Origin: Minisyncoccota bacterium
Lineage (GTDB): Bacteria > Patescibacteriota > Minisyncoccia > Phycocordibacterales > JABAAK01
NCBI GenBank assembly: GCA_963668425.1
Contig: OY764332.1
Coordinates: 359,504 to 423,503 of the forward strand
DNA: 64,000 bases
Direction: 5' to 3'
Shown: positions 7,675-37,915 of the stretch, one piece after another
Position numbering within the stretch: position 1 is the first letter of the stretch
Layout: every line of letters begins with the position of its first letter
The notes under the pieces: generated by a model
What the model was told of the DNA's origin: nothing
What the model saw: only the letters and a program-made list of their open reading frames with translations
Databases searched by the model: none
Made by a program: the position numbers and the translations under genes

Positions 7675-8733
7675 ATGAAAGGTATGCAGTTAGGCACACT
7701 TTTGCCGATTTTTCTCTTCTTTTTACTCTTTGCTGGTATTCTCATTATCTACAGGGAAGAGATAGAAAAGATGGAGCTCTTTGGAAAATTGCACACGTCT
7801 CCGGTTCCCGCAACACGCATTGATCAACCTGCTGTCCCTTCTGCTCCGGTCATCCCACTATCTCTCACTTCTTCTGCGACTACTACATCAGTGTCCAATG
7901 TTCGTGTGATTTCTTTTGGGGATGGGCGTGTTGTTGATTCTACCTTACGTAATATTCCGATTGTTGATTTGCGTGCCGGTGTTGGATCGCTACACACCCT
8001 TTTACCAAACGTCAGTGATTATTACGCTCGAGCGTTTGTTGAAGAGTCGTCCGATTTGTATAATCCGTCTCCACATGTCGGTTCTGTTATTTTTCTTGAT
8101 AGGGTTTCTAATATCAAGGAAACAGACCCAGATCGTGAGTATTTTGTACTTCTTGTATCCAATGCTCTGTCAGCACCTATTACTATCACAGGTTGGAAGG
8201 TGCTTGATCGGCAGGACGGTGTTTCGTATACGTTTTCTCGTGGGGTTAAGGTATTTGGCTCAGGTGATGTTTCCTTGCCGATTGAGGTGTATTCTGGTGA
8301 CAGAATTTTTGTCTCTTCTGGGGATTCTCCGACCAACACTTCGTTTCAGGTGAATAAATGTTCTGGGTATCGTTCTCAGTTTGAGAACTTTACTCCGACC
8401 ATAAAAACATTTTGCTCAGATCCGGTTCAGGATTTTTCGGATTACGGAGATGTCCCTTTTTCTGATGCTGTGTGCTACTCAATGGTTTCCTCTCTTTCGC
8501 CTTGTACGACAGTGCGTACTATTCCTTCTGGTGTTACTGCAAAATGTCGTAGTTTTTTGCAGGACGTTTTGACTGAAAAAGGGTGTGTGTCCCGTCATCG
8601 CAATGATCCTGATTTTTTTACTGGAGAGTGGCGGTTGTTTTTAAAATCGGATAAAGAGATTTGGAAAAATCGTGATAATGTTTTGTATTTACTTGACGAG
8701 AATGACCTTCTCGTCGCCACTCTGGTGTATTAG
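7675..8733 (+). CDS. Membrane-anchored hypothetical protein with a lamin-tail-domain (LTD)-like segment.
   Basis: N-terminal TM. 'EYFVLLVSNALSAPITITGWKVLDRQDGVSYTFSRGVKVFGSGDVSL' matches the LTD pattern (EYIELxN...L.GW.L.D......F). Confidence 0.4.
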   Translation: MKGMQLGTLLPIFLFFLLFAGILIIYREEIEKMELFGKLHTSPVPATRIDQPAVPSAPVIPLSLTSSATTTSVSNVRVISFGDGRVVDSTLRNIPIVDLRAGVGSLHTLLPNVSDYYARAFVEESSDLYNPSPHVGSVIFLDRVSNIKETDPDREYFVLLVSNALSAPITITGWKVLDRQDGVSYTFSRGVKVFGSGDVSLPIEVYSGDRIFVSSGDSPTNTSFQVNKCSGYRSQFENFTPTIKTFCSDPVQDFSDYGDVPFSDAVCYSMVSSLSPCTTVRTIPSGVTAKCRSFLQDVLTEKGCVSRHRNDPDFFTGEWRLFLKSDKEIWKNRDNVLYLLDENDLLVATLVY

Positions 8734-13451: not shown

Positions 13452-14122
13452 TAGCAGTCCTGTTGTTTTGCGATGTTTTTTGCGGGTGTTGTTAATGCTT
13501 CGTAGCTTTTCTTTTTGAACGGGGAAAGATATGCGGTTGCGATGGCATATCCTACGGAACACGCGGTGAATGGTGGTATTTTTTCTTTTTCATTACCCCA
13601 AAACCATTTTTCTATGTCTGGAGATGATGTGCTGTGCTCACTTTTTATTTTTTCCCATAGCCGTTTTATTTCCTTTTTTGGCAGTTGTGTGAAGCGACCT
13701 TTCGGCTTTGCGGACATTTTTTCTGTTACAAATGTCTCTGCAAGTCCTTCATTTATTACCTCTTCTAGTAGTCCACAGTCCGCATCAAGACCAATATGTT
13801 TTGTGCGTGCGGTTGTGTATAAGCTGCGGTAGCAGTGCTCTGTGATATTTTTTGTGATTATATTTTTGTTACTTGGTAGTGCCTTGTGTATCGTGTCAAC
13901 ATCAGCGAAGAGGTATATGGCAGTTTCATCACATGAGGATCCAAAAAACATTTCGCTATCAAGCATCTTTTTAGGGTTGGTGGAAATGAGTACTTCGCAT
14001 TCTGTGAGATTGAGATCGTTATGCGCTTCTTTATATATTTGGTCAATTGTTTGAGCAATGATATCCTGTGCAACTTTTTTGAGTGTTGTGATGTTGTTTT
14101 TTAAGAAGTGGATTCTATACAT
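13448..14122 (-). CDS. Hypothetical protein, possibly DUF2268-like (predicted metallopeptidase-like fold with a degenerate HExxH).
   Basis: The pattern 'EH..R...EGLAETF...W..L..EE.KRLWEKIK...WFWGN...P...GYAIATAYL' resembles DUF2268 members as I remember them. No intact HExxH. Confidence 0.3.
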   Translation of the reverse strand: MYRIHFLKNNITTLKKVAQDIIAQTIDQIYKEAHNDLNLTECEVLISTNPKKMLDSEMFFGSSCDETAIYLFADVDTIHKALPSNKNIITKNITEHCYRSLYTTARTKHIGLDADCGLLEEVINEGLAETFVTEKMSAKPKGRFTQLPKKEIKRLWEKIKSEHSTSSPDIEKWFWGNEKEKIPPFTACSVGYAIATAYLSPFKKKSYEALTTPAKNIAKQQDCY

Positions 14123-14213
14123 TGTCTTTATGGTACCAGATTTTGCTATTTTAGATTGTTGGCATGGTATGTTGGTAGTAATGGGCTTTTACAGCAGTTT
14201 CTTTTATGGAAAG

Positions 14214-17200
14214 ATGCGACGACCGGTGTTGTTTTTGTTATTGCTTATTTCTTGTTATTTGTTTTTTGTCACATTTGATGGCTTTGTGCATAACGATCAG
14301 ATTTTTGCTCATGCGCAGTCACTGAACACTGGCTCTTCTGATCAATCTTGGTCGGTACGATCGTTTATCTGGAATCAAAGGGGAAATACTTGGTTGCGTA
14401 CGCATTGTACGATGCGTATAGGTGGCTTGGGATCATTGGTGCCTGGTGAATCGTCTCGGTCGTCATGTAGTAATACCTCTGTGGATAAAAAATTGGGTTT
14501 TGTTCAATACTATCATGACATTGATCCTGATGACACTACACCGAATGATGATACTGATGATGTGTATGGTAAGTTGAAAGGTCGAGCGTGGTCTCCTTTT
14601 TATGGGGCTGTGTATTTTGATTTGTCTGATTTTCCCTCTTCTGGTAATGCCGCTTCTTGTTATGGACTCACTGGTGTCAGTAGGCAGGCGCGGGTACGGC
14701 GGTTGAGTGATGAGGTGAAGTTGGTTGGTTGTGCATATGTGCCGCTATTGAAGAATTATATTCTTTTTAATAAGTTTGGCACAACAGATTCTAGTATTCC
14801 TTCTTCTAGTTGGAATGGGGTTTCTGTTAGTGCTGTTGAAGATCCTGTCAGTGCGTATCTTACACTCTCTGGTTGTGCGTGGTCATCAAGGAGTGGTTTT
14901 TGGTCTGTTGGACCGAATAGATCTTCGGTGTTAAACAATGAGAACTGTTTGCCGCCAGGACATAACACTGCACTTCGGAGAGTGCTCCCTGAATCACGTA
15001 TTGGCTCTCCTGGTGGTGTGCTTACTACAGTCAGTCCGACTCGTACTTCCGCTAAAATTGGACAGGAGGTTGGATATCAGTATGTGTGCCCCGATGGTTA
15101 TTCTGCTCCATCTCTTCGTGTTGGTTCTAGGATTGTTTCCTCAATTCTTTCGTTTTTTCGTGGTTCATATCGTGAGATTTTCACTGATCCTGTTGACACC
15201 CTTTTACTCACTTGCACTGATAGAACAGGTGTTTTTACTACTTTACGAAATTCCTCTGGTGCAGTCAGCACCTCAGTTCAGAATTCCCTTTTTATTTCTT
15301 CATTTACTGCTACACCACCAGTGCTTACTGGAGGTGGCTTTATTTCGTTTGGTGGGCAGGTGAGCAATCAGGGTGGGTTTGCGAGCAGAACTTTTATTGA
15401 TACTGCTGTTGGACATTGTGATAATACCGTGCGGAACGGATGTCTTAACGGTGCTGTGAATGATGCAGTGATTGCTGATGATTCTCTGTATTATAAGTGG
15501 CGGTGTGAGGGGGTGGGTGGTGCAGCACACTCGGGAACTTGTCAATCTGTGAAGGTGCTATCTGTACCTACTCAGGCAAAGGTGGTTGCATCTGATAGAG
15601 CGGGCGATGATACTTTTGGCTACTCTGTTTCTATAGACGGAGACACCGCTATAGTTGGTGCTCACCTTGAGGATCACGATGCAAGTGGTAGCACTCCTAA
15701 ACCTGATGCTGGCTCCGCTTACATTTTCACCCGCACAGGAAGCACCTGGAGTCAGCAGGCAAAGATTGTTGCGTCTGATAGAGCGTCTTATAATTACTTT
15801 GGACACTCTGTTTCCATAGATGGAGATACCGCTATAGTTGGTGCTCACGCTGACGCCGGTTCCGCCTACATTTTTACCCGCACAGGAAGCACCTGGAGTC
15901 AGCAAGCAAAGATTGTTGCGTCTGATAAAGCGAGCGATGATACTTTTGGCTACTCTGTTTCTATAGACGGAGACACTGCTATAGTTGGTGCTTACAACGA
16001 AGATCACGATGTCAGCGGCGGCGCCTCTCAATTTAGTGCCGGCTCCGCTTACATTTTCACCCGCACAGGAAGCACCTGGAGTCAGCAGGCGAAGATTGTT
16101 GCGTCTGATAGAGCGTCTACTGATTATTTCGGCTACTCTGTTTCTATAGACGGAGACACCGCTATAGTTGGTGCTTACAACGAAGATCACGATGTCAGCG
16201 GTGGTGCTTCTAAAAATAACGCCGGTTCCGCCTATATCTTTACTCGTACAGGAAGCACCTGGAGTCAGCAGGCAAAGATTGTTGCGTCTGATCGATTTGA
16301 GAGGGACGATTTTGGTCGCTCTGTTTCCATAGATGGAGACACTGCTATAGTTGGTGCTCGCTTTGAGGACGACGATGTCAGCGGTGGCGCTTCTAAAAAT
16401 AACGCCGGCTCCGCTTACATTTTTACCCGCACAGGAAACGCCTGGAGTCAGCAGGCAAAGATTATTGCGTCTGATAGAGCGGTCAGTGATTCTTTTGGCT
16501 ACTCTGTTTTCATAGACGGAAACACCGCTATAGTTGGTGCTTACCTTGAGGATCACGATGTCAGTGGTGGCGCTTTTCAAACTAACGCCGGCTCCGCTTA
16601 CATTTTTACCCGCACAGGAAGCACCTGGAGTCAGCAGGCAAAGATTGTTGCGTCTGATAGAGCATCTAATGATTATTTTGGCCACTCTGTTTCCATAGAT
16701 GGTGGTATAGCCATGATTGGTGCTTATAATGAAGATCACGATGTCAGCGGTGGTGCTTCTAAAAATAACGCTGGTTCCGCTTATGCATTCACTTTTCCTA
16801 CTCAAGGGCTTTGTGATAACACTGTGCGAAATGGTTGCATGCTTGGTGTTGTGAATGACGCTGCGATTGTTGATACTGCCACACATTATCGTTGGCGGTG
16901 TGGTGGTGCTAATGGTGGTGGTGACTCTGGTGCTTGTCAGTTTTCTAAGGCGACTATTCCAGGTAATGAAGGGTATTGTGCTATTGTCAATAAGGTGACA
17001 GGGCGTGAGGTACACCGTTTTGACGTTGATGGATCTGCTGTTTCTGTTTCTGGCTCTGACTTGGTGGTGCGAGATACGGTGTATGACTTGCAGTGTCAAT
17101 ATAAAAAATTTACTGCTGATGGGCTGTTTGATAAATGGCAGTCGATCTCACCCCCCTCTGTTGTGGTGAAGGTGTTGCCGCGGAATGTTTCTGAGCGGAA

Positions 17201-18743
17201 TGTTTCTGGTTCTGTTGGTTTACCGGTTTTCTCTGAGACCAATGCTGCTGTTTCGGTTACTATTCCACCTAGTGCTGCCATGGTGTATGTGTATCGTCTT
17301 GATGTGTCCTCTTTGAGGCAGGTTACTCCGAACTCGTTGTATAAGATTTTTGTTGATCGAGATGCCGTTGAGTTGAGTGATAGTGAGACCATTAATGCTC
17401 TGAAGGCGCGATTGTTTGAGAGTGCGGTGCAGAGTAGGGTTGTGGTTGTTGGTTCTGGCTCTGGGAGTATTACCAGATCTGCTCTAACTGACAAATCTTT
17501 GGTTGCTGTTGCGCGAACTGTAGATGGTGCTTGGAGTCAGCAGGTCATATATTCTTTTTTGGTTGCCGGCTCTTGTGACAACGGTGTCCGTAACGGCTGC
17601 TCTGCCGGTTTCTTCAATGATTCAGCAGAGCCAGATACTGCTACTGAATACCGATGGCGGTGTGATGGAACGAGAGGTGGGGAAAATTCAGGTCAATGTT
17701 CCATCTTGAAATCCTCTGTTGTTGTCGGCTCTTGTGACAACAGTGTCCGCAACGGTTGCTCTTCTGGTACCCTCAATGATGCAGTAGAGTCAGATACTGC
17801 TACTGAATACCGATGGCGGTGTGATGGGGCTGGAGGTGAGAAAAATTCAGTCCAGTGTTCCATCGCTAAACCTGTTATCGGCTCTTGCAATAACAGTGTC
17901 CGCAACGGTTGTTCTACTGGAGTTGCTAATGATGCAGCAGAGTCAGATACTGCTACTGAATATCGATGGCGGTGTGATGGGGCTGGAGGTGAGAAAAATT
18001 CAGGTCAGTGTTCCATCTTGAAATCCTCTGTTTTCGCCGGCTCTTGCAATAACAGTGTCCGCAACGGTTGCTCTTCTGGTACCCTCAATGATGCGGCAGA
18101 GTCAGATACTGCTAGTGAATACCGATGGCGGTGTGATGGGTCTGGGGGTGGGCAAAATTCAGGTCAGTGTTCCATCTTGAAATCCTCTGTTGTTGTTGGC
18201 TCTTGTGACAACAGTGTCCGCAACGGTTGTTCTACTGGAGTTGCTAATGATGCAGCAGAGTCAGATACTGCTACTGAATATCGATGGCGGTGTGATGGGG
18301 CTGGGGGTGGTGTTCGTTCTGGTGTTTGTAAAAGAAACAAGCCAATTGATGGTGGCTGGAGTAAATGGGCACCACTCTCTGGAGCTAAAACTTGTGGTGA
18401 TGCATTTGTCCAGACGAGATCCTGCACTAATCCGGCACCGGCACATGGTGGTAAGGTGTGCTCTGGCTCTTCAAGTCGTCAGGATGTCGGTACGCAATGC
18501 TCATCCGGCAAGATTTGCAAGGATAAGAAGTGTGTGGTGTCGTCGATATCTTGTTCTGCTAACAATGCGTCTTTCAGACGCTGGGGCAGTAATGGCACCT
18601 GTTATGCTATTGGAGCTCGTGCTACTATTCCTGCCGGAGTGGTTGGAGGTCGCCACACAATTCAAGCTAATGTTGGAACTGGGAGGGCGGTATTTGAGTG
18701 TACGGATTCTGGTTGGACAGAAGTTAGCTCTACCTGTTCTTAG
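14214..18743 (+). CDS. Giant secreted/cell-surface protein (~1509 aa) with a signal peptide, 7 FG-GAP-type propeller repeats, 8 copies of a 4-Cys ~47-aa repeat, and a thrombospondin type-1-like module near the C-terminus.
   Basis: Start moved to the internal ATG giving 'MRRPVLFLLLLISCYLFF...'. Repeats 'FGYSVSIDGDTAIVGA...AGSAYIFTRTGSTWSQQAKIVASD' occur x7. 'GSCDNSVRNGCSxGxxNDAxESDTATEYRWRCDGxGG..SGQCSI' occurs x8. 'WSKWAPLSGAKTCGDAFVQTRSCTNPAPAHGGKVCSG' is TSP1-like. Confidence 0.7.
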   Translation: MRRPVLFLLLLISCYLFFVTFDGFVHNDQIFAHAQSLNTGSSDQSWSVRSFIWNQRGNTWLRTHCTMRIGGLGSLVPGESSRSSCSNTSVDKKLGFVQYYHDIDPDDTTPNDDTDDVYGKLKGRAWSPFYGAVYFDLSDFPSSGNAASCYGLTGVSRQARVRRLSDEVKLVGCAYVPLLKNYILFNKFGTTDSSIPSSSWNGVSVSAVEDPVSAYLTLSGCAWSSRSGFWSVGPNRSSVLNNENCLPPGHNTALRRVLPESRIGSPGGVLTTVSPTRTSAKIGQEVGYQYVCPDGYSAPSLRVGSRIVSSILSFFRGSYREIFTDPVDTLLLTCTDRTGVFTTLRNSSGAVSTSVQNSLFISSFTATPPVLTGGGFISFGGQVSNQGGFASRTFIDTAVGHCDNTVRNGCLNGAVNDAVIADDSLYYKWRCEGVGGAAHSGTCQSVKVLSVPTQAKVVASDRAGDDTFGYSVSIDGDTAIVGAHLEDHDASGSTPKPDAGSAYIFTRTGSTWSQQAKIVASDRASYNYFGHSVSIDGDTAIVGAHADAGSAYIFTRTGSTWSQQAKIVASDKASDDTFGYSVSIDGDTAIVGAYNEDHDVSGGASQFSAGSAYIFTRTGSTWSQQAKIVASDRASTDYFGYSVSIDGDTAIVGAYNEDHDVSGGASKNNAGSAYIFTRTGSTWSQQAKIVASDRFERDDFGRSVSIDGDTAIVGARFEDDDVSGGASKNNAGSAYIFTRTGNAWSQQAKIIASDRAVSDSFGYSVFIDGNTAIVGAYLEDHDVSGGAFQTNAGSAYIFTRTGSTWSQQAKIVASDRASNDYFGHSVSIDGGIAMIGAYNEDHDVSGGASKNNAGSAYAFTFPTQGLCDNTVRNGCMLGVVNDAAIVDTATHYRWRCGGANGGGDSGACQFSKATIPGNEGYCAIVNKVTGREVHRFDVDGSAVSVSGSDLVVRDTVYDLQCQYKKFTADGLFDKWQSISPPSVVVKVLPRNVSERNVSGSVGLPVFSETNAAVSVTIPPSAAMVYVYRLDVSSLRQVTPNSLYKIFVDRDAVELSDSETINALKARLFESAVQSRVVVVGSGSGSITRSALTDKSLVAVARTVDGAWSQQVIYSFLVAGSCDNGVRNGCSAGFFNDSAEPDTATEYRWRCDGTRGGENSGQCSILKSSVVVGSCDNSVRNGCSSGTLNDAVESDTATEYRWRCDGAGGEKNSVQCSIAKPVIGSCNNSVRNGCSTGVANDAAESDTATEYRWRCDGAGGEKNSGQCSILKSSVFAGSCNNSVRNGCSSGTLNDAAESDTASEYRWRCDGSGGGQNSGQCSILKSSVVVGSCDNSVRNGCSTGVANDAAESDTATEYRWRCDGAGGGVRSGVCKRNKPIDGGWSKWAPLSGAKTCGDAFVQTRSCTNPAPAHGGKVCSGSSSRQDVGTQCSSGKICKDKKCVVSSISCSANNASFRRWGSNGTCYAIGARATIPAGVVGGRHTIQANVGTGRAVFECTDSGWTEVSSTCS
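15570..16800 (+). repeat. Coding tandem repeats (~138 bp x 7) encoding the FG-GAP-like propeller blades.
   Basis: Near-identical nucleotide periodicity. The antisense ORF 15558..17099 is an artefact of this. Confidence 0.8.
17560..18330 (+). repeat. Coding tandem repeats (~141-150 bp x 6, plus 2 diverged copies upstream) encoding the 4-Cys module.
   Basis: Repeated GGCTCTTG(T/C)(G/A)ACAACAGTGTCCGCAACGG(T/C)TG(C/T)TCT...TACCGATGGCGGTGTGATGG units. Confidence 0.8.
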
Positions 18744-18770
18744 TTGATGTAATTACACTGCTTTCTGTTG

Positions 18771-19125
18771 GAGGGGGAGTAGTGTGCATAGTAATGCACG
18801 CCACTCCCCCTCCTTACTCCCCCTCCTTTTTTTAAAAACAAATATTTTTTACCTGCTTTTTTCTTCTTTTTTAAAAACAAATATTTTTTATCTGCGGAGG
18901 GGGAGGGATTCGGCGTCAAGTTTCTAAGCTCGCTATCGCTCACTAAGAACTTCCTGCCCGGGCTCGGCGACAATTTTGCTTCGCCCTGCTTCGCAAAATC
19001 GTAGACCGCCTCCGCCTTTCAAATCCCAACGTAGTGTGCATTACTATGCACACTACTCCCCCTCCTTACTCCCCCTCCTTTTTTTAAAAACAAATATTTT
19101 TTATCTGCGGAGGGGGAGGGATTCG
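18771..19125. repeat. Complex repeat region between the giant-protein gene and tRNA-Ser. Two ~250-bp-spaced copies of [palindromic hairpin GTAGTGTGCAT..ATGCACACTAC + CTCCCCCTCC T-rich tract + 17-nt tRNA-Ser 3' end]; the first copy lacks the rest of the tRNA.
   Basis: Copy 1 spans about 18771-18912 and contains an internal duplication of TTTTTAAAAACAAATATTTTTTA. Copy 2 spans about 19031-19125 and runs into the intact tRNA. 'TCTGCGGAGGGGGAGGGATTCG' is present at 18891-18912 and at 19104-19125. Confidence 0.8.
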
Positions 19126-19195
19126 AACCCTCGATACGGATAATCCGTATGCCGGTTTTCAAGACCGGTGCCTTCAACCACTCAGCCACCCCTCC
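19108..19195 (-). tRNA. tRNA-Ser (anticodon UGA) with a long variable arm.
   Basis: Manual fold: acceptor GGAGGGG/CCCCTCC, discriminator G, anticodon stem CCGGT/ACCGG with loop CUUGAAA, variable-arm hairpin ATACGGA-TTAT-CCGTAT, T-arm GAGGG-TTCGAAT-CCCTC. Confidence 0.85.
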
Positions 19196-19233
19196 AGTGT
19201 GTATGATACTGTATTTTGTCTGTGCGTGCTATT

Positions 19234-19791
19234 TTAGACAATCACTGTGGTGAGGCGATCTATGACAGTTGGTTCCAATGTTTCCTCTTTTGGTATTTCC
19301 ATCTCTGTTAAGGTGCGCTCTATGTCTTGTATGTGTACATCATAGATTGGGATAATTTCATTGATGTGTACTATTTTTTCTATTTTAAGTATGAGGCGGG
19401 CGCGGCTGCCTGGATCGTCTATAATATTGAATCCCTTGATGCATTTTGTTTCTATGAAGTCGTCATCCATGAACATGCCGATGGGTGTTATGTTGAATAG
19501 GAGGTGCTTGGGTTTTTTTCTCACAGTGCTTATGAGTGTGACGGTTGCAAGTGTAAGCAGTGCGCCGAATATGTAGTTTTTTGCGATGATTGTCAGTAGT
19601 ATTGCTCCAATGCCAATGATTATCATGAGCAGTTCCTTGTCTTTTGTGTACACCTTCTTTTCTTCGGTAAATTGCCACTTGATAAGTGACTTCATGTCTT
19701 CTGTGACATCTCTATTTTTTCTATTGCTACTTGTTTTTTCTGTTGTAGTGTGTTGTTTCATGTGCGTATGTAGGCAGTATACACCGCTCAT
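19234..19791 (-). CDS. Hypothetical membrane protein (two central TM helices).
   Basis: ORF with 'MIIIGIGAILLTIIAKNYIFGALLTLATVTLIST' hydrophobic hairpin. No family recognised. Confidence 0.35.
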   Translation of the reverse strand: MSGVYCLHTHMKQHTTTEKTSSNRKNRDVTEDMKSLIKWQFTEEKKVYTKDKELLMIIIGIGAILLTIIAKNYIFGALLTLATVTLISTVRKKPKHLLFNITPIGMFMDDDFIETKCIKGFNIIDDPGSRARLILKIEKIVHINEIIPIYDVHIQDIERTLTEMEIPKEETLEPTVIDRLTTVIV

Positions 19792-36463: not shown

Positions 36464-37915
36464 ATGCTTGTGGTTTATACTGTTTTCAAGATGTCTACTC
36501 CTAATTTCAAGCCGAATACACTCTTCACGAGAGATAATTTGTATATTTTGCGTGGCATGAACAGTGAGTGTGTTGACTTGATATATCTTGATCCGCCATT
36601 TAATTCAAAAAAAAACTATGTTGCACCTTTGCCTGTGAAGGATGAAGAAATACTTGCCTCATTCAAGGATGTATGGAAACTCATTGATATTGATGAAGCG
36701 TTGCATGAGGAATTGCAGGAGACTCAGCCATGTTTGTATGAGATTATTAAGGGTGTTGAAGCAGCACACTCCAAGGCGATGTTTTCATACTTGATATACA
36801 TGACCATGCGACTGGTTGAAATGCATCGTGTGCTAAAACCAACAGGAAGTATATTTCTGCACTGCGATCCAACGGCAAGCCACTACTTAAAAATAGTGAT
36901 GGATTGTATTTTTGGAAAGAGTAATTTTAGAAATGAGATTATTTGGTGTTACGGTGAAACGGCCAGAGGTGCAAAGGCAAAAGCCAGTCAGTTTGCACGA
37001 AATAATGATGTGATACTTTTTTACGGAAAAACAAGTCAACATCTCTTTAACAAAACATATTTTGAAAGGAAAATAAAGTTTGAGGGGTCAGGGTATCAGC
37101 GGGAGGATGATGGACGATGCTTTAGAACAGCACCACGAGGCGATTATACAGATGACAGTATTGAAAGGTTAAGAAGGGAAGGTAGGATTTATGAGACAAG
37201 AAACGGGACTATACGCATTAAATATCATGAAAAATGTGATGAAACCTTTGTGTATGAAAAAAAACTTTTTGGTAATGTTTGGTCAGATATACCTGATATG
37301 ATGCACGCAGAAGAGATAGAAAAAACCGGCTATTCAACTCAAAAGCCGTTAAAACTATTACAGCGAATCATCAATACAGGTAGCAAAAAAGGTGGTTGGG
37401 TACTTGACCCATTCTGTGGATGTGCAACTACCATGGTTGCCGCAGAAAAACTGGGGAGGAAGTGGGTTGGCATTGATGCCTCTCATTTTGCAAAATTTTT
37501 TGTTAAAAGCAGAATGGAAAAAGAATTGGAGAAAAAAATTCCTTTTATTTTTCTCAAGGATATATCTGGTAGGCAGTTCAGTGATGAAAAAGAATTGAGT
37601 GATTGGGAAAATAAGAAAAGGATGTATGAAGAGCAGGAAGGTGTATGCAATGGATGCGTTGGTCATTATCATGAAAAAGATATGACTATTGACCATATCA
37701 TACCAACATCAAAGGGCGGTCAAGACACACAAGATAACAAGCAATTACTTTGTTTTCACTGTAACACGACAAAGGGGACAGGAACAATGCCAACGCTATG
37801 GCAAAAACTTGCAAAAGGGCATGTATTGGAGTATCACGAAGCGGATAAACTCATACAAGAGCACAAAGACAGAAAAAAGAAACTTGAAAAAGAGTATGGA
37901 ACTAAAACACTATGA
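36464..37915 (+). CDS. DNA methyltransferase (beta-class N6-adenine/N4-cytosine type, motif IV before motif I) fused to a C-terminal HNH endonuclease domain.
   Basis: 'DLIYLDPPFNSKKNY' (DPPF catalytic motif) near the N-terminus and 'VLDPFCGCATTMVAAEKLGRKWVGID' (SAM-binding motif I) near residue 315. C-terminal 'CNGCVGHYHEKDMTIDHIIPTSKGGQDTQDNKQLLCFHCNTTKG' is a Zn-finger HNH motif. Confidence 0.8.
   Translation: MLVVYTVFKMSTPNFKPNTLFTRDNLYILRGMNSECVDLIYLDPPFNSKKNYVAPLPVKDEEILASFKDVWKLIDIDEALHEELQETQPCLYEIIKGVEAAHSKAMFSYLIYMTMRLVEMHRVLKPTGSIFLHCDPTASHYLKIVMDCIFGKSNFRNEIIWCYGETARGAKAKASQFARNNDVILFYGKTSQHLFNKTYFERKIKFEGSGYQREDDGRCFRTAPRGDYTDDSIERLRREGRIYETRNGTIRIKYHEKCDETFVYEKKLFGNVWSDIPDMMHAEEIEKTGYSTQKPLKLLQRIINTGSKKGGWVLDPFCGCATTMVAAEKLGRKWVGIDASHFAKFFVKSRMEKELEKKIPFIFLKDISGRQFSDEKELSDWENKKRMYEEQEGVCNGCVGHYHEKDMTIDHIIPTSKGGQDTQDNKQLLCFHCNTTKGTGTMPTLWQKLAKGHVLEYHEADKLIQEHKDRKKKLEKEYGTKTL

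Follow-up and report, generated by a model that had tools for sequence, protein, structure and literature searches.

The window, by which we mean the whole 64-kb stretch of DNA analysed here, contains an intact tRNA-Ser(TGA) gene and a convergent FG-GAP gene whose stop codon lies at 18741-18743. The features of the locus are listed in Table 1. As the preliminary description had noted, the 22-mer TCTGCGGAGGGGGAGGGATTCG is present in exactly two copies, at 18891-18912 and 19104-19125 (no matches in 100 shuffles), and both of them are preceded by the same module of hairpin, C-rich box and A/T tract. The 22-nt identity is correct, but the true extent of the direct repeat is ~95 nt, so the 22-mer is not the whole repeat. 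It contains, in order, the hairpin, CTCCCCCTCC, TTA, CTCCCCCTCC, the A/T tract, TCTG and 18-19 nt of the tRNA 3' end, the tRNA part starting at C56, in the T-loop. In the proximal copy, this part is the last ~19 nt of tRNA-Ser(TGA) itself, from C56 of the T-loop to the discriminator.

The hairpin GTAGTGTGCAT-N4-ATGCACACTAC is found at 19031-19056 (exact) and at 18779-18804 (two mismatches), with no copy expected by chance. The 4-nt loops, AGTA and TACT, are reverse complements of each other, and the two hairpins therefore also form a 35-nt inverted repeat. Copy 1 of the direct repeat has an internal 39-nt tandem duplication of its A/T tract (18828-18866 versus 18867-18905), and its hairpin has an additional left arm, GGAGGGGGA, which gives a 20-bp stem at 18770-18813.

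The preliminary description placed ~120 bp of unique DNA between the two copies. A segment of 118 bp (18913-19030) is present, but it is the best-conserved part of the locus rather than an anonymous spacer. Together with the orphan tRNA 3' fragment it makes up one 137-nt unit, which we named SerX. The H1 module is located at the place of a second SerX unit, without the P1-P3 body described below, and the orientation of its loop is inverted relative to every other copy. Another tRNA gene of the window, tRNA-Val, is followed by a plain hairpin and a T-run.

Table 1. Features of the tRNA-Ser/SerX locus, with positions in the window.
Feature	Position	Strand	Description or evidence
H1 module	18770..18826	.	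G-box, hairpin and C-box as a 20-bp stem, TTA, second C-box, T7 run
Second A/U-rich spacer	18827..18893	-	39-nt internal tandem duplication; repeat search
Orphan tRNA-Ser 3' fragment CGAAUCCCUCCCCCUCCGC	18894..18912	-	P1 3' strand and SerX tail
SerX core, 137-nt Y-shaped RNA	18894..19030	-	Alignment A1, RNAalifold, covariance model
Hairpin arm H2, arm of the long-form RNA	19031..19056	-	11-bp stem and 4-nt loop; repeat search, covariation
Two G-boxes, GGAGGGGGAG UAA GGAGGGGGAG in tRNA sense	19056..19078	-	Inverted repeats
A/U-rich spacer between tRNA-Ser and SerX	19079..19106	-	Partly palindromic; no -10-like motif of the tRNA-upstream type
tRNA-Ser(TGA), intact	19107..19195	-	ARAGORN; Rfam RF00005, 61 bits

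Searches with Rfam, at gathering thresholds for the whole window and at E<=10 for 18700-19250, returned tRNA and chance matches only, and no family corresponding to SerX. The locus has no BLAST match in phage and plasmid collections and no exact-pattern match in IMG/VR, and a full-text search of the literature found no description of such an element. The exact protein of a neighbouring 185-aa ORF is not on record. The hammerhead and other small ribozymes, SRP RNA, RNase P RNA, group II intron domains V/VI and the guide RNAs of IS200/605 (TnpB) and IS110 were compared by eye and, together with the negative Rfam result, rejected because either their core motifs or an associated gene are missing.

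Fold and covariation of SerX

Eight copies of SerX, aligned with MAFFT only (alignment A1), have a column identity of 94%, and RNAalifold predicts 41 pairs, eight of them covarying. In this alignment 99.4% of the cells can pair, against 31-43% when the partners are slid, and both-sided changes occur in 8 of the 41 pairs, compared with 3.1±1.2 in shuffles (0 of 500 reach this number) and 0-1 in the slid controls. When the Leu and Cys types described below are added, both-sided changes occur in 15 of the 41 pairs, against 4.9±1.5 in shuffles (0/500) and 0-4 in slid controls, for a small set of 11 distinct copies from about 7 genomes with one alignment fitted to the model.

The covariation shows that the SerX core is a three-way junction, formed by a closing stem (P1) and the long arms P2 and P3; the nucleotides at the junction are invariant. 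P1 consists of the 3' half of the T-loop and the 3' strand of the T-stem, paired with a complementary 5' segment, i.e. the T-loop is in effect zipped shut. It is followed by an 11-nt 3' tail, which is the acceptor 3' strand of tRNA-Ser plus the discriminator. An invariant G·U pair (columns 31/59) and the U·G variants can pair on the tRNA-sense strand only. The covariance model scores SerX of the window at 166.7 bits (E=9e-38) and finds it to be the sole copy within the 64 kb.

The conservation of the unit is local. SerX is 80-95% identical to that of species whose RluA proteins are just 79-86% identical, and the flanking spacers differ; the intergenic DNA is unalignable between species where SerX stays conserved. 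A 77-aa ORF (18740-18973, minus strand) overlaps SerX and was rejected as a gene because the substitutions are stem-compensatory and the indels are not multiples of three. SerX is not a tRNA either: there is no ARAGORN call and no Rfam tRNA match even at E<=10, and just an acceptor-like stem, the T-stem and one extra arm of a tRNA are kept. What is found are compensatory substitutions within a conserved structure, as in a structured RNA. SerX is a conserved structured RNA, not described before, that is located just downstream of tRNA genes in bacteria with tiny genomes (CPR/Paceibacterota), and it is very probably a functional RNA gene derived from a tRNA and not the scar of a lost mobile element.

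In the Ser type, the tail (acceptor 3' strand and discriminator G) pairs with the G-box just upstream of H2, which in the window is the proximal one (19056-19065). The resulting 9-bp helix, GGAGGGGGA/UCCCCCUCC and then G-CA, is present in the alifold consensus and in 9 of 9 single-sequence MFE folds of this type, and over its first 7 bp it has the sequence of the tRNA-Ser acceptor stem. In these folds, the two ends of the RNA come together in an acceptor-type helix that leaves the discriminator end single-stranded. The helix is 90% paired and has one G-C to A-U covariation, which tracks the tRNA variant in L007 and L041, and the neighbouring H2 has both-sided compensatory changes in 5 of 10 pairs (nine copies). 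The acceptor-like helix is thus predicted by folding and weakly supported by covariation. L004 and L041 have mispaired positions in this helix, the Leu type retains just 4 bp of it, and the Cys type lacks it. The G-box could pair equally well with the 3' end of the tRNA itself, which makes its partner ambiguous. In one of the SerX copies of L087 (SerX-1) the tail has diverged and the body is intact, which suggests that the tail sequence is not strictly required.

With H2 and the G-box included, the predicted 172-nt long form would resemble a tRNA-Ser in which the acceptor stem and a single long hairpin arm are kept. The D and anticodon arms would be lost, and the Y-shaped domain would replace the T-loop.

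Occurrence in related genomes

SerX was found in at least five species, without cargo between the repeats. The complete Paceibacterota genome OZ241963.1 has it after tRNA-Ser(CGA), tRNA-Ser(GGA) and tRNA-Ser(TGA), and the same body is found after tRNA-Leu(CAA) in L084 and after tRNA-Cys in L080. P1 and the tail match the local tRNA, GGUCG/CGACC in Leu, AAUCG/CGAUU in Cys and AUUCG/CGAAU in Ser. The orphan fragment is identical to the variant of the adjacent tRNA (GGAGGGGG or GGAGAGGG) in every genome examined, and only tRNAs that carry a SerX element have a downstream copy of their own 3' end.

The copy number varies. L006 has two full copies and one decayed copy; L087, a conspecific contig (96.5-98.3% identical), has two copies, one of them a full SerX (8131-8267, 159 bits) at the position of H1 in the window. 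The close relative L005 has no SerX at two tRNA-Ser loci, where the hairpin module stands alone, and the element is thus dispensable. A different orphan T-arm/acceptor fragment is located ~25 nt downstream of tRNA-Ser in L005. Many copies have decayed or are truncated (L006, L041, L080, L086 and H1 of the window), which would also fit a selfish repeat.

An extended -10-like motif, (T)GGTATCAT, precedes most of the compared tRNA-Ser genes at a distance of 7-20 nt; at two tRNA-Ser(GGA) loci it has diverged. A scan of GTDB genomes with a GC-rich 19-mer gave mostly chance matches in high-GC genomes, the three OZ241963.1 loci being the only real ones. A first metagenome scan (23-mer) gave no match, and a second gave eight loci, five of which (L079, L081-L083 and L085) are chance matches inside protein-coding genes.

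Integration, mobility and termination as alternatives

The preliminary description interpreted the duplicated tRNA 3' end as the scar of an excised or decayed element, or as a repeatedly used attachment site. The tRNA 3' end is indeed directly repeated on both sides of an element; the repeat spans the T-loop to the end of the tRNA, which is the identity block of T-loop-class tyrosine integrases. Under such a model the repeats would be attL and attR, and the DNA between them the remnant of an attP arm from a decayed island. A case in point is L087, in which a defence island of 5.8 kb has its insertion point precisely at the orphan tRNA 3' boundary. A GCGG duplication of 4-6 bp flanks the island, which encodes a restriction enzyme and a reverse transcriptase as well as two methyltransferases. 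The orphan fragment of L005 would also fit this model.

The island is one concrete instance of a usable attachment site, and to that extent the earlier proposal survives. However, the island lies outside the repeat pair, with just the 4-6 bp flanking duplication, and no integrase was seen among its ORFs that we examined. In the window, the observation that no integrase is nearby holds: Pfam finds no integrase or transposase domain in the ORFs of at least 150 aa between window 80 and 42044, and none lies near the locus. Between the repeats there is neither an integrase, or a remnant of one, nor cargo, and the 118-nt RNA body and the hairpin are alone there. The same "remnant" would have to be shared by three tRNA-Ser loci and by five or more species, and the spacer and hairpin are duplicated too and homogenised within each genome. 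Compensatory changes and conserved G·U pairs are unexpected for a protein-binding att arm. The model of an att pair is already largely refuted, and we regard it as extremely improbable. The idea of a scar largely fails, as the intervening DNA is a conserved structured RNA with compensatory changes, found in several species and at three tRNA-Ser loci, and the related units after tRNA-Leu and tRNA-Cys also count against a lost element. Among relatives, occupancy takes the form of tRNA-Ser without a SerX unit in L005 and of the filled locus in L087, with its island outside the repeat pair. The preliminary description stated that its interpretation would be refuted, in favour of a structural or regulatory role, by conservation of the repeat structure in relatives, and the structure is conserved in them.

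SerX could instead be a selfish, non-autonomous element, comparable to a MITE or SINE, that targets the T-loop or 3' end of tRNA genes as a structured RNA or as folded ssDNA. A recombinase or reverse transcriptase with its gene at another place would act on it in trans, and the fold would be the feature recognised by this enzyme. Such an element would explain the occurrence at several tRNA loci of one genome and at different tRNA species across lineages, as well as the tandem arrays, the many decayed copies and the absence from close relatives. Relatives' contigs break at the locus (L002 starts inside the tRNA-Ser gene), P1 amounts to an 8-11 bp terminal inverted repeat, and in L087 the reverse-transcriptase gene abuts one SerX copy. 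This gene, however, is convergent with SerX, belongs to the restriction-modification island and has no counterpart at any other SerX locus, and for these reasons we rejected a link between the two. The enzyme scores best with the UG17/DRT model. P1 resembles the a1/a2 stem of retrons; a retron ncRNA (msr-msd) was rejected, since there is no reverse transcriptase at the locus of the window and the one of L087 is convergent, island-borne and UG17/DRT-like.

Further evidence against a selfish element comes from the repeat itself. The flanking repeat takes in the locus-specific spacer and hairpin (64-95 nt), which is the signature of a local tandem duplication and not of an insertion of foreign DNA. 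A short target-site duplication and conserved termini intrinsic to the element are both missing; the inverted termini are copies of the T-loop and stem of the host tRNA and change with it, unlike those of a MITE or IS. The neighbours are housekeeping genes, with no candidate enzyme consistently nearby, and SerX is a single copy in 64 kb, without matches in the viral and plasmid collections. A selfish origin seems rather unlikely to us.

The H1 hairpin starts 26 nt past the FG-GAP stop codon, and on the plus strand its outer stem (GGAGGGGGAGTA/TACTCCCCCTCC) is directly followed by T7; H1 probably also serves to terminate transcription from both sides, that of the FG-GAP gene and that of tRNA-Ser/SerX. 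The whole block could be a cis-acting device for 3' processing or termination of the tRNA-Ser transcript and the convergent FG-GAP gene, with no separate role as an RNA. The position of the block between convergent genes and the 20-bp H1 hairpin with its C-box and T7 would agree with this, and the presence of SerX at each tRNA-Ser locus of one genome is what is expected of a cis element. However, termination does not require a three-way junction of 137 nt whose junction nucleotides are invariant and whose sequence is 94% conserved. The tRNA-Ser loci of L005 manage with the hairpin module only, and tRNA-Val of the window uses a simple hairpin and T-run. The consensus terminator scan called neither H1 nor H2, and H2 has no U-run on the tRNA-sense strand. 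We consider a purely cis-acting role very unlikely.

Proposed origin and comparison with known systems

The explanation that we consider probable is that SerX is a tRNA-derived, tRNA-like RNA gene, co-transcribed with tRNA-Ser and multiplied in tandem by unequal crossing-over. SerX would be read on the same strand as tRNA-Ser, as its tandem partner. Transcription would start from the tRNA-Ser promoter, because a TGnTATCAT-like motif is conserved upstream of the tRNA and none is seen in the spacers before SerX. The ends of SerX would be made by the tRNA-maturation machinery, i.e. RNase P, RNase Z and CCA addition. The 95-nt direct repeat would then exist because SerX and tRNA-Ser share a 3' module and a spacer. 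Unequal crossing-over and gene conversion between the repeats could produce the variable copy number (0-3) and the decayed copies, and also the homogenisation within a genome and the spread to other tRNA-Ser loci.

A more far-reaching idea, which we put forward as speculative and unlikely, is that SerX and its Leu and Cys relatives form a new class of tRNA mimics that can be charged or that recruit enzymes, or else the first RNA-structured element that copies itself into tRNA T-loops. As a mimic, SerX would keep the acceptor stem and discriminator of its parent, the long extra arm of the Ser type could satisfy SerRS, and the Y-shaped domain would be an effector placed where the T-loop was. If true, such mimics would be a functional analogue of tmRNA for non-ribosomal or regulatory aminoacyl use in CPR bacteria.

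The genomes of CPR/Patescibacteria are minimal and, to our knowledge, hardly any non-coding RNAs have been characterised in these bacteria. [quoted passage not shown] It also calls for caution, as a duplicated tRNA 3' end need not be the scar of an integration. SerX may explain the assembly breaks and the hot-spot behaviour downstream of tRNA-Ser, seen as defence-island insertion and repeat arrays.

Among known systems, the attL/attR repeats of tRNA islands of the T-loop sublocation class resemble SerX in that the repeat runs from the T-loop through the tRNA 3' end and in that the L087 island abuts the repeat of the SerX locus. The SerX locus differs in having no integrase or cargo between the repeats, RNA-type covariation in the intervening DNA, a repeat that extends over the locus-specific spacer and hairpin, and units at several tRNA loci, in arrays.

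In E. coli, 3'ETS-leuZ is an sRNA made from the 3' external transcribed spacer of a tRNA and released by tRNA processing. SerX is likewise a non-tRNA RNA immediately downstream of a tRNA, where co-transcription would be expected from our model. Spacer-derived sRNAs are short, poorly structured and lineage-specific, whereas SerX folds into a large three-way junction, is conserved and makes use of the 3' sequence of the tRNA itself.

The bacterial Y RNA YrlA is ~100-150 nt long, has paired 5' and 3' ends and contains a domain mimicking part of a tRNA, the D/T elbow; it is linked to the rsr (Ro60) gene. SerX, in contrast, is linked to a tRNA, contains literal copies of the T-stem and acceptor strand of its neighbour, has no T-loop and has no match to Y RNAs in Rfam.

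In tmRNA (SsrA), the acceptor stem, discriminator and T-stem of a tRNA are kept and a functional domain stands in for the rest. The enzymes that process tRNAs also mature tmRNA, and islands frequently insert at the 3' end of its gene. A tmRNA was rejected as the identity of the locus: ARAGORN finds none, and the Rfam tmRNA and permuted-tmRNA matches (12-18 bits) are far below the gathering threshold and fall on the T-arm/trailer region of the tRNA, not on the SerX body. SerX has no tag reading frame or pseudoknots, its domain sits in the T-loop and not in place of the anticodon arm, its acceptor stem is that of tRNA-Ser (or Leu) and not of the Ala type with G3:U70, and it stands in tandem with its parent tRNA and shares its 3' module. 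The likeness is that both are RNAs with a tRNA end in which the remainder of the tRNA has been replaced.

The repeat at tRNA-Ser and its genomic setting

The 22-mer TCTGCGGAGGGGGAGGGATTCG is found at two sites and no third, while the shuffle expectation is none, Table. The two copies of the tRNA-Ser 3' end and the two palindromic hairpins paired with them were thus described correctly. The length of 22 nt was not: sequence reading and repeat analysis give a true direct repeat of ~95 nt, consisting in order of the hairpin, CTCCCCCTCC-TTA-CTCCCCCTCC, an A/T tract, TCTG and the tRNA 3' end from T-loop C56 through the discriminator. In the distal copy the A/T tract has a 39-nt internal duplication, and an extra GGAGGGGGA arm extends the hairpin to a 20-bp stem. 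The distal loop appears flipped, as recombination or template switching between the palindrome arms would give, because the two loops (AGTA and TACT) are mutual reverse complements and all other copies in relatives have the TACT orientation.

The surroundings are core chromosome of a small-genome bacterium, with genes for MetRS, ClpP, a superoxide dismutase-like protein, an FG-GAP repeat protein, RluA, ribosomal protein S6, SSB, RecA and FtsK. The window has a G+C of 0.44 and a strongly positive GC skew, and the closest named relatives are Candidatus Paceibacterota and Kaiserbacteria. The stop of the 1561-aa FG-GAP protein is 26 nt ahead of the distal hairpin, and the distal module H1 is probably also a bidirectional terminator for this convergent gene. 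The FG-GAP gene contains two internal tandem DNA arrays; the C-terminus of the protein is rich in cysteine, and the orthologues in relatives have 1502-2056 aa.

ORFs of at least 150 aa at window positions 80-42044 yielded no domain of an integrase, transposase or reverse transcriptase, and the preliminary description's remark that no integrase is nearby holds to that extent. One ORF encodes an N6/N4 DNA methyltransferase fused with an HNH endonuclease. It sits in the window's lowest-GC stretch (0.377), and the AT skew is reversed in sign at 36-38 kb, so that a small restriction-modification or mobile module may have been imported here.

Features at the tRNA-Ser locus and in related loci (window positions unless a locus is named)
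Feature	Position	Strand	Description
tRNA-Ser(TGA)	19107-19195	minus	ARAGORN; Rfam tRNA 61 bits
-10-like motif	19196-19215; equivalents in L004, L006, L007, L040, L005	minus	7-20 nt upstream of mature tRNA-Ser 5' end
22-mer copies	18891-18912; 19104-19125		tRNA-Ser 3' end
SerX core	18894-19030	minus	single covariance-model copy in window, 166.7 bits
SerX long form	19065->18894	minus	172 nt
H1 module	18770-18826		position of second unit; G-box, hairpin and C-box only; loop inverted
Distal hairpin	18770-18813		20-bp stem
Hairpin loops	18790-18793; 19042-19045		AGTA; TACT
FG-GAP gene	14058-18743	plus	arrays: 183-nt period x5.1 (15853-16783), 159-nt period x4.7 (17562-18310)
Methyltransferase/HNH ORF	36464-37915	plus	
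Island	L087:8346-14188 (= L001:1-4604)		5.8-kb insertion
SerX at H1-equivalent position	L087:8131-8267		full unit, 159 bits
Tandem array	L006:4160-4401		54-nt unit x4.5 (94% matches)
Comparable repeat	L004:4480-4680		~80 nt
Degraded P2/P3 piece	L041:3985-4045		TTGTCGCTGAGCCTGGGCAGGAG in tRNA-Ser(GGA) trailer
Other orphan fragment	L005:3958-3979		AGGGTTCAAATCCCTCCTCTTC in tRNA sense

Conservation of the DNA between the repeats

The duplicated 3' end had been read as the att-like scar of a lost integrated element, with unique DNA between the copies. Both statements are overturned by the relatives, whose syntenic contigs were fetched through RluA homologues. The 118 bp between the repeats are the best-conserved non-tRNA sequence at the locus, and together with the orphan 3' fragment they keep 80-95% identity in L004, L006, L007 and the conspecific L001/L087. 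The spacers and hairpins, unlike this unit (SerX), vary from genome to genome. A scan of one genome for each GTDB species identified three units in the complete chromosome OZ241963.1 (661,662 bp), directly downstream of three different tRNA-Ser genes, with anticodons CGA, GGA and TGA. In every case the variant of the orphan 3' fragment (GGAGGGGG or GGAGAGGG) is that of the adjacent tRNA. Among the tRNAs of the fetched loci, a downstream 3'-end copy is restricted to those bearing the element; tRNA-Lys, Val, Arg and Gly have none.

Locus L006 contains two full units and a decayed third in tandem. An array of 54-nt repeats, each with a small hairpin, lies between the decayed copy and the next full copy, and L004 has a comparable repeat; local repeats seem to expand readily downstream of SerX arrays. 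The tRNA-Ser(GGA) trailer in OZ241963.1 holds a fragment of the P2/P3 junction of SerX in degraded form, and this locus therefore formerly had two units. In L005, a relative without SerX, another orphan fragment ~25 nt downstream of tRNA-Ser(TGA) comprises the full T-arm and acceptor 3' strand of another tRNA, and may be a true scar left by integration or deletion.

L001 and L087 are conspecific with the window (96.5-98.3% identity). L087 has a defence island, absent from the window, between two SerX units. It encodes two N6/N4 methyltransferases, a type II restriction enzyme, a type III methyltransferase fragment and a 401-aa reverse transcriptase (top PADLOC match RT_UG17/DRT), and its left end is 785 nt of non-coding, GC-rich DNA. 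The left boundary is …CCTGCGG|GGAGTATGG, and the right boundary, …TTTAACA|GCGGAGGGGG, is the exact 3' end of the second SerX; the island is therefore flanked by a 4-6 bp GCGG duplication, and the tRNA-like 3' end has been the site of insertion at least once. The att idea survives in this one island at a SerX 3' end, which lies outside the repeat pair first described and in whose examined ORFs no integrase was seen.

Fold of SerX and its dependence on the host tRNA

Eight copies were aligned with MAFFT (137 columns, mean identity 94%). RNAalifold predicts 41 pairs, which make up the closing stem P1 and the composite arms P2 and P3. Standard pairs fill 99.4% of the cells, against 31-43% with the partners slid, and eight pairs show changes on both sides, against 3.1±1.2 in shuffled alignments (0/500) and 0-1 in slid ones. 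An invariant G·U and several U·G variants fit the tRNA-sense strand only. These substitution patterns mark SerX as a structured RNA read in tRNA sense. Rfam 15 has no family that matches it. An overlapping 77-aa ORF was rejected as a gene, because the substitutions are stem-compensatory and indels among the copies break the frame.

Each of the nine Ser-type copies has, directly 5' of the hairpin H2, a G-box (GGAGGGGGA or a variant) whose pairing partner is the 3' tail UCCCCCUCC. The resulting 9-bp helix is found in the alifold consensus and in all single-sequence MFE folds of these copies; its first 7 bp reproduce the tRNA-Ser acceptor stem exactly, and the discriminator G and then CA come next. 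This helix is 90% paired, one G-C to A-U covariation follows the GGAGAGG tRNA variant, and H2 has five covarying pairs. In our model the long form is therefore a three-way junction, at which an acceptor-like stem and a long hairpin arm meet P1 with its arms P2 and P3. According to this model, it resembles a tRNA-Ser that lacks the D and anticodon arms and has its T-loop zipped shut, with a Y-shaped domain in its place.

A covariance model was built from the eight copies, and more distant ones were sought by a degenerate 22-mer scan of JGI metagenomes. Three more loci with matches to the model were obtained: L084, L080 and L086, the last with a decayed copy close to the contig end. In L084 the unit is downstream of tRNA-Leu(CAA), its 3' end CGACCCCCTCCCGCGGCA equals that tRNA from the T-loop on, its 5' end GAGGGGGTCG is the reverse complement of the start of CGACCCCCTCCCGCGGCA, and the 50-nt trailer hairpin of the tRNA is repeated exactly behind the unit. 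In L080 a short-P2 variant behind tRNA-Cys carries the 3' sequence of that tRNA at its end, with a single mismatch, and a truncated copy is found behind the next gene, tRNA-Leu(TAA). The genes next to the unit in these loci have housekeeping functions (ParB, RelA/SpoT, topoisomerase I, IF-2, RbfA).

The body is kept in the Ser, Leu and Cys types alike, and P1 and the tail co-vary with the host tRNA (AUUCG/CGAAU, GGUCG/CGACC and AAUCG/CGAUU, respectively). By this comparison, P1 and the tail are supplied by the host tRNA. With the Leu and Cys types added, changes on both sides occur in 15 of the 41 pairs, against 4.9±1.5 shuffled (0/500), in an alignment slightly biased toward structure because it is fitted to the model. 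Acceptor mimicry is well supported in the Ser type and is no family-wide rule; the Leu type recreates only the first four acceptor pairs (GCCG/CGGC) and the Cys type none.

Probable transcription, spread and role

A conserved extended -10-like motif, (T)GGTATCAT(A), lies upstream of most tRNA-Ser genes compared, with diverged versions at two tRNA-Ser(GGA) loci, and is likely a promoter element of the lineage. None was seen in the A/U spacers ahead of SerX, so co-transcription of SerX with tRNA-Ser would be the simplest model.

tRNA-Ser and SerX have the last 19 nt and the following spacer in common, which gives the locus direct repeats of 64-95 nt. Exchange between these repeats, by unequal crossing-over and gene conversion, would explain the copy numbers (none in L005, one in the window, two in L087, two and a remnant in L006), the remnants in L041 and L080, the homogenisation of repeats within a genome, and the spread over tRNA-Ser loci with the same 3' end. 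In the conspecific L087 a full SerX occupies the position equivalent to H1.

The locus belongs to a family of structured RNAs, so far undescribed, that in CPR bacteria are linked to tRNAs and derived from them. A selfish element that targets T-loops and mainly propagates itself would be an unlikely, though not negligible, account of it. We favour, with some confidence, a functional RNA that passes through the maturation machinery of tRNAs and may serve the cell as a tRNA mimic or as a cis-acting partner of tRNA-Ser.
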